Positions 16,248 through 17,715 of a DNA stretch of 37,176 nt are shown here, in pieces. Position 1 is the first letter of the stretch. Each line of letters starts with the position of its first letter. Origin of the DNA: a virus. Below the pieces are notes generated by a model. It did not search any database, had not been told where the DNA came from, and worked only from the letters and a program-made list of their open reading frames with translations. The stretch lies in the IMG/VR virus record IMGVR_UViG_3300017992_000055. One strand, written 5' to 3'. The translations under genes and the position numbers were made by a program.

Positions 16248-16321
16248 TGGCCCAGGTGAGATTCGAACTCACAGCATCTCGACGTTTGAAATCGAGTGGT
16301 CTGCCGGTTGCCTACCGGGCC
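16248..16321 (-). tRNA. class-I-shaped tRNA with a Leu anticodon (CAA)
   Basis: GGCCCGG-TA-GGCAACCGGCAGACC-A-CTCGAT-TTCAAAC-GTCGAG-ATGCT-GTGAG-TTCGAAT-CTCAC-CTGGGCC-A. Confidence 0.45.
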
Positions 16322-16426
16322 ATTGGCATCAGGGGCCACCTCCTAAGGACCCCATCGTTACACTTGTGTCTCTCGCCGCCCTGTCTTTAACCAGGCACGG
16401 GACCGCACCATTGCGGCTGTAACGAG

Positions 16427-16500
16427 TAGCTCAGGTGGGATTCGAACCCACAGCATCCCGGGGTTTAAGCCCAGGTGGTCTGCCTATTGCCTACCGAGCC
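16427..16500 (-). tRNA. class-I-shaped tRNA with a Leu anticodon (TAA)
   Basis: Paralogue of 16248-16321; anticodon arm CCTGGG-CTTAAAC-CCCGGG. Confidence 0.45.
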
Positions 16501-16648
16501 ATTTGCGAGCAAGGTGAGCCGCTTTCATACTCACTTCCCTCACCGTGTCGTTCATCCTATTGGTCCTAGGTCCGACAAGGATCTCCCGCACGGATTGCGC
16601 CAGCCATGACCCGGAGTCGACTCGTGGTCTAGCCATGCTCGCACGACG

Positions 16649-17365
16649 CTAGCGCCGTTTACGCTTCGTAGGATCCTTTCGGAAACTGAACTTGTTGAAG
16701 CCCTTGGCGCCGACCATCACTTTGTCGGGCACGTCCGGGATCGGTTTCTCTGGCTGCGCTTGCGCGCCCAGGTACATGGCGAGCTCTTGGAACGCTGTGT
16801 ACCGGTCGAGCACTCGATAAAACTCGATGACCTCCAGTCTAGGGTTGATCTCTATCTCGTAAACGCTTTTGCGCCATACACGGGCGCGGCTGCTGTCTGC
16901 CAGGAAGATCGGCGCACCGAACTTCTCGAACAGCTCCTCGTGTTTGTCTCGTACTGCCTCTATCTCCTCGAAGAACTTCTCAATGGAGACCCGCGTGCTC
17001 GCCGGCCAACATTCTTTCCGCCATGTCCTTCGCTTCGGTAGTGGCTTTGTGTACGCGGCGACCTCCTTCTTATGCATGGTCGCATTCACCCACGCTAGAA
17101 CCTCGTCAGGGTTGTAGCAGAACACCGGTTTGCAATCTGCTGTCTGGTACTGGGGTATCCGCACGAGCGGATACAGCTTGCCGCAGAAGCCCACGACAAG
17201 CCTTTCTGCGGGTAGTTTGGCCCAGCCACCGCGTCGCTTATGCAACGGAAACGGGTACTCTGCAATCTCAACGTCCTCCGATTTTCTAAGGTAGATGAGC
17301 GACTGGTCCTGGCCTGCGCCTTGGATGCAGTCATAGTAGTCGTGAAACTCGGATATTATGCGCAT
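16649..17365 (-). CDS. hypothetical protein (238 aa)
   Basis: ORF; start at MRIISEFHDYYDC avoids tRNA overlap. Confidence 0.4.
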   Translation of the reverse strand: MRIISEFHDYYDCIQGAGQDQSLIYLRKSEDVEIAEYPFPLHKRRGGWAKLPAERLVVGFCGKLYPLVRIPQYQTADCKPVFCYNPDEVLAWVNATMHKKEVAAYTKPLPKRRTWRKECWPASTRVSIEKFFEEIEAVRDKHEELFEKFGAPIFLADSSRARVWRKSVYEIEINPRLEVIEFYRVLDRYTAFQELAMYLGAQAQPEKPIPDVPDKVMVGAKGFNKFSFRKDPTKRKRR

Positions 17366-17401
17366 GTCTCCACGTGTGTCTGTTGGTGACAGTTTTACCA
17401 G

Positions 17402-17474
17402 TAGGCGCGGCAGGATTCGAACCTGCAACATCTAGGTCCTAAACCTAGCGTCTCTGCCGTTGGACTACACGCCC
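17402..17474 (-). tRNA. class-I-shaped tRNA with a Leu anticodon (TAG)
   Basis: Anticodon stem CTAGG/CCTAG, loop TTTAGGA, 5-nt variable region ATGTT, A73. Confidence 0.45.
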
Positions 17475-17478
17475 AAAG

Positions 17479-17559
17479 CGGAAGCGGGAGGAGTCGAACC
17501 TCCTACGGAGTTACCCGCGACTGTTTTCGAGGCAGCTTCCTACCGTTAGGCTCGCTTCC
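17479..17559 (-). tRNA. tRNA-Ser (CGA), class II
   Basis: Acceptor GGAAGCG/CGCTTCC, anticodon loop CTCGAAA, long variable arm, T-arm GGAGG-TTCGACT-CCTCC. Confidence 0.45.
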
Positions 17560-17563
17560 GTAG

Positions 17564-17637
17564 TAGCCCAGGTGAGATTCGAACTCACAGCATCGCGGGG
17601 TCTGAGGCCGCGTGGTCTGCCGATTGCCTACCGGGCT
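17564..17637 (-). tRNA. class-I-shaped tRNA with a Leu anticodon (CAG)
   Basis: Same scaffold as 16248-16321; anticodon arm CGCGGC-CTCAGAC-CCCGCG. Confidence 0.45.
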
Positions 17638-17641
17638 ATAG

Positions 17642-17715
17642 TAGCAAGGGTGGGATTCGAACCCACAGCATCACGCCCTCTCAAGGCGCGTGGTCTGCCT
17701 GTTGCCTACCTTGCT
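17642..17715 (-). tRNA. class-I-shaped tRNA with a Leu anticodon (GAG)
   Basis: Same scaffold; anticodon arm CGCGCC-TTGAGAG-GGCGTG; acceptor AGCAAGG/CCTTGCT. Confidence 0.45.

Follow-up and report, generated by a model that had tools for sequence, protein, structure and literature searches.

A 2023 review holds that the long variable arm of leucine transfer RNA (tRNA-Leu) is kept everywhere except in animal mitochondria, where tRNA-Leu has a short variable loop and is leucylated through A73 and A14 without the arm (PMC9976931). Behra et al. (2019, PMC6582537) also mention, in one sentence, a short variable loop in a tRNA-Leu(UAG) encoded within a cluster of Mycobacterium mucogenicum/phocaicum, and cultured phages carry genes of 74–77 nucleotides (nt) with leucine anticodons that GenBank labels tRNA-Leu and that are set among other phage tRNAs. 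In the present work, we analysed a viral DNA stretch of 37,176 nt (IMG/VR record IMGVR_UViG_3300017992_000055, hereafter the window, at its full length), the minus strand of which carries between positions 16248 and 17715 five class-I-shaped tRNA genes with the anticodons CAA, UAA, UAG, CAG and GAG. Judged from sequence comparison, these genes probably are genuine leucine isoacceptors, charged by the host bacterium's leucyl-tRNA synthetase (LeuRS) and belonging to a widespread class-I-shaped family. They are new members of a kind already noticed and labelled tRNA-Leu, although uncharacterised: full-text literature searches returned no study of the charging of short tRNA-Leu and none describing the structure, here called scaffold A, on which four of the five genes are built.

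The five genes share with canonical class II tRNA-Leu the discriminator A73, leucine anticodons, a D loop of the Leu type (AA..GGYARA) and a canonical T loop that can make the G18/G19 elbow, whereas their variable loop is 5 nt long, against more than 10 nt in class II. Scaffold A differs further by an irregular D stem, an extra pair in the anticodon stem, a first pair that is mostly G1.U72 or A1-U72, and A37 in the tRNAs reading CUN codons. Unlike animal mitochondrial tRNA-Leu, the window genes have canonical G18G19 and UUCGAAU loops and GC-rich stems and are not organellar; the likeness between the two probably reflects convergence and not descent. The short genes of cultured phages resemble them in length, in leucine anticodons and, where the sequence was read (Yappy, Big4), in the scaffold-A signature. 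In contrast to these, the window phage belongs to another lineage, probably with a host of another phylum (Planctomycetota), and it has all five isoacceptors, all of them short.

Long tRNA arrays of bacteria, plasmids and phages, including those of Planctomycetes, are well described (PMC4758250, PMC8421152, PMC5966550). Such array units, or L-arrays, are redundant, near-complete and horizontally spread tRNA sets unlike the tRNAs of their hosts, and scaffold A is abundant in the Planctomycetota ones. By the published definition, an array unit has at least 20 tRNA genes at two or more per kb (PMC4758250); the window lies below this density, with ∼40 tRNA genes between 5431 and 36332 (∼31 kb), i.e. 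∼1.3 per kb, and protein genes in between. The five genes have 7-bp acceptor stems, 5-bp T stems, a 5-nt variable loop and A73. In this they differ from the allo-tRNAs of Mukai et al. (2017), non-canonical tRNAs that have leucine or other anticodons and, reportedly, serine identity, acceptor/T stems of 8/4 or 9/3 and a long variable arm; the likeness lies in an unusual cloverleaf with Leu-box anticodons, found by genome mining.

Five short tRNA genes with a complete set of leucine anticodons

The preliminary description, made from the letters alone, had placed five minus-strand tRNA genes with these anticodons in the window, and ARAGORN and the Rfam model RF00005 agree with it at each position. 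tRNA-Leu(CAA) lies at 16248–16321 (ARAGORN 16247–16321; Rfam 45.3 bits), and tRNA-Leu(UAA), with a G1.U72 wobble and A73, at 16427–16500 (ARAGORN 16426–16500; 41.8 bits). tRNA-Leu(UAG), also with G1.U72 and A73, is found at 17402–17474 (ARAGORN 17401–17474; 60.2 bits). The last two, both with A1-U72 and A73, are tRNA-Leu(CAG) at 17564–17637 (ARAGORN 17563–17637; 39.3 bits), which has A37 and not G37, and tRNA-Leu(GAG) at 17642–17715 (ARAGORN 17641–17715; 43.8 bits). All five scores exceed the Rfam gathering score of 29 bits, with E-values from 1e-6 to 1e-10.

Without CCA, which is not encoded, the genes measure 73–74 nt. Each has a 5-nt variable loop (AUGCU or AUGUU) and A73, and none has the variable arm of more than 10 nt, folded into a stem-loop, that defines class II. 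The preliminary description had named a long variable arm or non-leucine anticodons in automated folding as the outcome that would contradict it; ARAGORN called leucine anticodons for all five, and the 5-nt loop stands in the alignment to the Rfam model. Together, the five anticodons are exactly the set for all six leucine codons. The anticodon loops are canonical, with 7 nt, U33 and a purine at position 37. In the window, leucine is represented by short tRNAs only, inside a set of ∼40 tRNAs that covers all 20 amino acids.

Two scaffolds, one of them supported by covariation

The genes for CAA, UAA, CAG and GAG are built on scaffold A and, as had been claimed for them, are nearly identical: they have GGCAAnnGGCAGACC in common, as well as ATGCT in the variable loop, TTCGAAT in the T loop and A73, and few positions differ outside the anticodon arm. 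In tRNA-Leu(CAA), positions 1–73 comprise GGCCCGG UA GGC AACCGGCAG ACC A, then a 6-bp anticodon stem, AUGCU, the T loop UUCGAAU and A73. In general terms, scaffold A begins with a 7-bp acceptor stem and U8 A9, followed by the D arm GGC-AAYNGGCAG-ACC and a single unpaired A; its 6-bp anticodon stem closes a 7-nt loop, AUGCU makes up the variable loop, and a 5-bp T stem carrying the loop UUCGAAU leads to A73. We defined the family by U8 A9 GGC AA-N1-3-GG-N-AG ACC A, the 6-bp anticodon stem, AUGCU, A73 and a leucine anticodon, which takes in the CAA, UAA, CAG and GAG genes.

The UAG gene, with its regular D stem and 5-bp anticodon stem, falls outside this definition. The preliminary description had given it the same architecture as the other four, which holds for its class-I shape and its anticodon but not for its scaffold. 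It is a canonical class-I cloverleaf (scaffold B) with a 3-bp D stem GUC/GAC plus C13.A22, a 5-bp anticodon stem, the variable loop AUGUU and a Leu-type D loop, AACGGCAGA. It is best matched by Leu(GAG) of related phage contigs, a gene with the same anticodon stem. A blastn match of 81% to a 'tRNA-Tyr/tRNA-Pro' of a cluster C mycobacteriophage raised a non-leucine origin for this gene, which was rejected because the target is a tRNA-Pro(UGG) by ARAGORN and the likeness consists of generic tRNA parts plus the anticodon stem. In Mycobacterium phage Bigswole (NC_054715.1, 93826–94078), the GenBank tRNA labels appear to be shifted by one gene: by ARAGORN, the gene labelled Tyr(gta) is Pro(tgg), 'Pro(tgg)' is Trp(cca) and 'Trp(caa)' is an 87-nt Tyr(gta).

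The D stem of scaffold A is irregular. In the Infernal alignment, G10-C25 and G11-C24 are paired, the next two D-stem pairs are non-standard, and an insertion is needed for the sixth anticodon-stem pair. RNAalifold, applied to 38 family members, gave a cloverleaf with a 6-bp anticodon stem and a D stem formed by G10-C25, G11-C24 and C12-G22 with A23 bulged; single-sequence ViennaRNA folds did not reproduce the D arm. Because the irregular D stem comes with an anticodon helix one pair longer, this limb of the L probably retains its full length. We also considered a pairing of GGCA (10–13) with UGCU of the variable loop in place of the D stem; both segments are invariant, which places it beyond the reach of covariation.

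For the other helices, the alignment of 38 distinct scaffold-A sequences is informative. Standard pairs fill 97.5% of the cells, and double compensatory changes occur in all seven acceptor pairs, all six anticodon-stem pairs and 4/5 T-stem pairs. The observed covariation values were reached in none of 500 shuffles, and the slid controls collapsed. The extra anticodon-stem pair is itself variable (CG in 33 sequences, GC in 2, AU in 1 and UA in 1), as is pair 1:72, which is G.U in 25 of the 38 and across the family mostly G.U or A-U. The D arm, the variable loop and the T loop are nearly invariant. Scaffold A is thus a real and widespread family, with covariation in support of its acceptor, anticodon and T helices, and the compensatory changes, together with the shuffles, argue for purifying selection on a working tRNA.

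These observations bear on two other explanations of the short genes. They could be decaying pseudogenes that lost their function together with the arm, as the missing arm and the weakened D stem might suggest; since the family is kept with compensatory changes not only in phage contigs and cultured phages but also in over 100 bacterial species, and its D arm and loops hardly vary, we find this scarcely credible. Alternatively, they could be decoys, as had been proposed earlier, or RNAs with another function outside translation, tRNA-like molecules that titrate a host factor or act in some way off the ribosome. The irregular D stem and Rfam scores of 39–45 bits, below those of most window tRNAs, fit this idea, and a role in translation is deduced from sequence features. 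However, a decoy would not be expected to come with exactly the five anticodons for the six leucine codons, canonical anticodon loops and strong covariation in the anticodon stem, in a phage that has no other tRNA-Leu beside a full set for the other 19 amino acids, and we regard this proposal as very improbable.

Distribution of short tRNA-Leu in phages and bacterial tRNA arrays

A D-arm pattern search of IMG/VR combined with ARAGORN returned many phage contigs in which tRNA-Leu genes of 74–79 nt lie in tRNA clusters. Among cultured phages, the scaffold-A signature (UAGGCAA..GG.AGACCA, 6-bp anticodon stem, AUGCU, A73) was read in the sequences of Leu(CAA) of Curtobacterium phage Yappy and of Leu(CAG) and Leu(GAG) of Microbacterium phage Big4. 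Moreover, blastn matches of 74–82% identity over 74–100% of a scaffold-A query were found in Microbacterium phage Zooman, Rhodococcus phage Peregrin, the M. abscessus prophages prophi86-1 and prophiT49-2, and Acinetobacter phage Acibel004. A blastn search of the PLSDB plasmids with two scaffold-A tRNAs gave no match.

Bacterial genomes were scanned once with a 20-base scaffold-A pattern, which gave at least 120 loci, each viewed as an 8-kb locus; the counts from bacterial genomes given here and below refer to the matches listed. Scaffold-A loci occur in at least 114 Planctomycetota genomes (114 of the 120), including the complete genomes of the cultured Schlesneria sp. T3-172 (NZ_CP172346.1), Singulisphaera acidiphila DSM 18658 (NC_019892.1) and Stieleria magnilauensis (NZ_CP036432.1). 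The 8-kb loci hold 2,174 tRNA genes and are therefore dense tRNA arrays, with up to 43 genes per 8 kb and, in one example, 39 tRNAs in 4.5 kb. Gene order is conserved among them, and chromosomal contigs as long as 10.8 Mb carry some of them. tRNA clusters are also present in a few metagenome-assembled genomes (MAGs) of Bacteroidota (Saprospiraceae, Chitinophagaceae, Bacteroidales), and a single scaffold-A gene lies in one Agromyces genome.

Short tRNA-Leu is thus common in phage and bacterial tRNA arrays. The statement of the preliminary description that bacterial tRNA-Leu is invariably class II repeats the textbook, but it fails for phage and array genes, among which the short form is common and already annotated. 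The arrays of the bacterial genomes contain 322 distinct leucine genes, 262 of them short and 60 long, whereas the long arm is kept in 163 of 164 serine genes and 52 of 54 tyrosine genes of the same arrays. The loss of the arm is specific to leucine.

Amino-acid identity

Several lines of evidence point to leucine. We collected 118 distinct scaffold-A bodies from phage contigs, cultured phages and bacterial genomes, and all of them carry leucine anticodons (UAG in 42, CAG in 37, CAA in 22, UAA in 9 and GAG in 8). A73 is present in 38 of the 38 aligned members. The D-loop motif AA-N1-3-GG-Y-A-R-A is found in all five window genes, with the reservation that the numbering of position 15 is ambiguous. 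Among ∼2,500 distinct array tRNAs, the same motif occurs in 69% of the long-armed and 73% of the short tRNA-Leu, and in at most 12% of every other amino-acid isotype; we used this count because a nearest-neighbour comparison of the whole D region with other isotypes was swayed by the variable stems.

These features correspond to what is known of leucine recognition. In E. coli, the identity of tRNA-Leu is set by A73, A15-U48, G18G19, A20a and contacts of the D loop with the T loop; for LeuRS the sequence and fold of the arm are irrelevant, and minimal arm-less tRNAs are still charged, whereas the seryl-tRNA synthetase (SerRS) requires the arm (PMC9976931). The earlier suggestion that the genes are genuine leucine tRNAs recognised mainly through A73 is therefore the one that we favour, with the amendment that a Leu-type D loop and elbow are probably used as well.

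That the genes are charged with another amino acid, so that leucine codons would be reassigned during infection, had also been suggested; the absence of the canonical class II shape leaves room for it, as does the fact that leucine charging is inferred. Alanine identity depends on G3:U70, serine identity on G73 with a long arm, and histidine identity on G-1 and C73. In the 38 scaffold-A sequences, pair 3:70 is CG in 27, UA in 9 and GC in 2 and never G.U, and the genes combine A73 with a short variable loop, which leaves the alanine, serine and histidine determinants absent. Synthetases that read the anticodon would, according to the identity rules (PMC9976931), reject NAG or NAA anticodons. 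In addition, the 21 leucine codons of a DUF7873 gene of the phage were compared with 107 homologues: 12 of the 21 fall in Leu-dominated columns and the rest in mostly hydrophobic ones, and the mean agreement at leucine codons (0.53) is the same as for other residues. The same tRNAs are present in chromosomal arrays of more than 100 bacterial species, where the reassignment of six codons would be lethal. Thus, the anticodons, pair 3:70, the discriminator and the DUF7873 alignment gave no sign of recoding, and the probability that we attach to it is slighter still than for decoys.

Movement of anticodons within the Leu box

The near-identity of genes that differ in their anticodons had been noted as striking. 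This paralogy is real, but it is a property of an old and widely spread family and not the product of a recent duplication in this phage. The window UAA gene shares 92% identity with tRNA-Leu(UAG) genes from arrays of Pirellulales and Pirellulaceae MAGs. In a related phage, whose large terminase subunit (TerL) is 76% identical, UAG is carried on scaffold A and GAG on scaffold B, and this GAG gene shares the anticodon stem CUAGG/CCUAG with the window UAG gene. The scaffold body is therefore old and conserved, and anticodons move among bodies within the Leu box. Such a shuffled assignment is expected of a synthetase that ignores the anticodon: as LeuRS does not read it, one body can carry any leucine anticodon, which would explain the anticodon-swapped paralogues.

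A proposed pathway and the points that weigh against it

In the reading that we prefer, the leucine genes, as functional isoacceptors of a large phage, would be transcribed with the rest of the ∼40-gene phage tRNA set and trimmed at both ends. C74-U75 follows the discriminator directly in all 38 tRNAs called by ARAGORN and in two further ones, and CCA is encoded by none of them; in the array loci, which are mostly from Planctomycetota, an N73-C-U trailer follows 77% of 2,173 tRNAs, and CCA is encoded in 3%. This trailer looks like a shared 3′-processing signal. Because CCA is not encoded, its addition by a CCA-adding enzyme is proposed. A host LeuRS of the bacterial type, which ignores the anticodon and needs no long variable arm, would then charge the tRNAs with leucine, recognising A73 and the Leu-type D loop and elbow (A14/A15, G18G19, an A after position 20 and D/T-loop contacts). 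Finally, the five isoacceptors, four of them on scaffold A, would read all six leucine codons in a compact class-I shape.

Some observations weigh against this reading. The D stem of scaffold A has only two certain Watson–Crick pairs, and since neither G-C pair ever varies, covariation cannot confirm them. Depending on the numbering, position 15 may be a pyrimidine, in which case there would be no A15-U48 pair. Bacterial tRNA-Leu that reads CUN codons usually has G37, the m1G37 site, and A37 is found in almost all CUN-reading scaffold-A members (CAG, GAG, UAG). The assignment of the phage to a Planctomycetota host, which the evidence given below suggests, is indirect. As for the synthetase, deletion of the arm in Aquifex aeolicus mainly lowers affinity (PMC2377443); because binding is weaker in this mutant, some hosts may charge such tRNAs inefficiently. 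For M. tuberculosis LeuRS, a contact of Arg921 with the long arm has been proposed (PMC3561953).

The altered shape could also be the point itself: without the arm, with changed D and anticodon stems and with A37, the tRNAs might evade host nucleases or toxins that target class II tRNA-Leu, and translation would go on. This would refine, and not exclude, the reading of the genes as leucine isoacceptors. Array units are discussed as putative anti-defence or stress elements, and their tRNAs are reported to depart from those of the chromosome in the D, anticodon and variable arms (PMC12803027). Phages that are unrelated, as well as mobile arrays, have kept the shape, and the tRNA set of the phage is complete and self-sufficient. 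On the other hand, our analysis identified no tRNA-Leu-specific nuclease or toxin, many arrays mix short and long leucine genes, as the 60 long ones among 322 attest, and simple streamlining tolerated by LeuRS explains the same data. We consider evasion possible but doubtful; the shape may be either adaptive in this sense or merely tolerated.

A bolder extension, which we hold to be unlikely, is that scaffold A is a distinct and anciently maintained leucine tRNA design, in which the sixth anticodon-stem pair offsets the irregular D stem and AUGCU is invariant. It could even be a working cellular tRNA-Leu in Planctomycetota, perhaps the only UAG/UAA isoacceptor of some genomes or a form used in stress or defence. 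If so, the rule of long-armed tRNA-Leu outside animal mitochondria would be overturned, and a natural minimal substrate of a bacterial LeuRS supplied.

As leucine isoacceptors, the five genes and their hundreds of relatives would be natural counter-examples to that rule in a bacterial LeuRS system, where mutagenesis had predicted that the arm is dispensable. The family would offer a natural minimal LeuRS substrate for tests of the identity rules, a marker that ties this phage lineage to Planctomycetota tRNA arrays, and a concrete case in which to ask whether phage and array tRNAs are reshaped against host defences that target tRNAs. Annotators should not discard calls of short tRNA-Leu in phages as errors.

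The window, its phage and the probable host

In the window, ARAGORN called 38 tRNAs, every one of them on the minus strand. It missed two others that were recovered by a permissive Rfam scan and inspection: a class II tRNA-Ser(CGA) at ∼17479–17559 (minus), with G73 and a C31.A39 mismatch, which is a close copy of the window Ser(GGA) body and has blastn matches to phage tRNA-Ser, and a probable tRNA-Tyr(GUA) at ∼18167–18254 (minus), which has a long variable arm and whose D arm is odd. These two bring the window to ∼40 tRNAs for all 20 amino acids. Class II serine and tyrosine tRNAs are kept in it, the serine tRNAs called by ARAGORN measuring 83–85 nt.

The window also encodes a large terminase of the gpA type (phrog_675, E = 4e-57), which marks it as phage DNA by sequence. 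Cultured phages gave no match to the region by megablast, and no close cultured relative of the window was found. Its metagenomic relatives are contigs of 58–162 kb, and a contig of 226,656 bp encodes an exact copy of one window protein. The open reading frame at 16649–17431, between the leucine tRNAs, had a single distant relative (36% identity) in the search for related phages and is therefore not conserved in the lineage.

The host is probably a member of the Planctomycetota. This is suggested by where scaffold A occurs, with the acceptor stems GGCUCGG and GGCCCGG found there too, and by the Planctomycetales and Pirellulaceae names of the DUF7873 homologues. It is also suggested by other tRNAs of the window, all on the minus strand: Ala(UGC) at 25279–25350 is identical at 71 of 72 positions to an array tRNA on a 7.5-Mb Thermoguttaceae chromosomal contig, and Ser(UGA) at 13200–13283 and Ile(GAU) at 35176–35248 are 92% and 90% identical, respectively, to Planctomycetota array tRNAs. 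These identities suggest a recent exchange of tRNAs between this phage lineage and host arrays.

Among the protein genes, an 845-amino-acid product encoded at 21469–24006 (minus) matches the shoulder domain of the major vault protein (PF11978, E = 7e-23) as well as a vault repeat (PF17795), which is unusual in a phage. Other genes interspersed with the tRNAs (4633–9871, 15373–16020 and 25351–27251, minus) match a sulfotransferase, a methyltransferase, a cytidylyltransferase, a nucleotide-diphospho-sugar transferase, a NodZ-like fucosyltransferase, a radical SAM enzyme and a stand-alone Clp_N-domain protein. Finally, both glycine tRNAs (10104–10176 and 10794–10866, minus) have an unusual T loop, with GGAUCGUAACC in place of GGUUCGAAUCC, and all three threonine tRNAs (5597–5754 and 29923–29995, minus) start with U1 and have U73.

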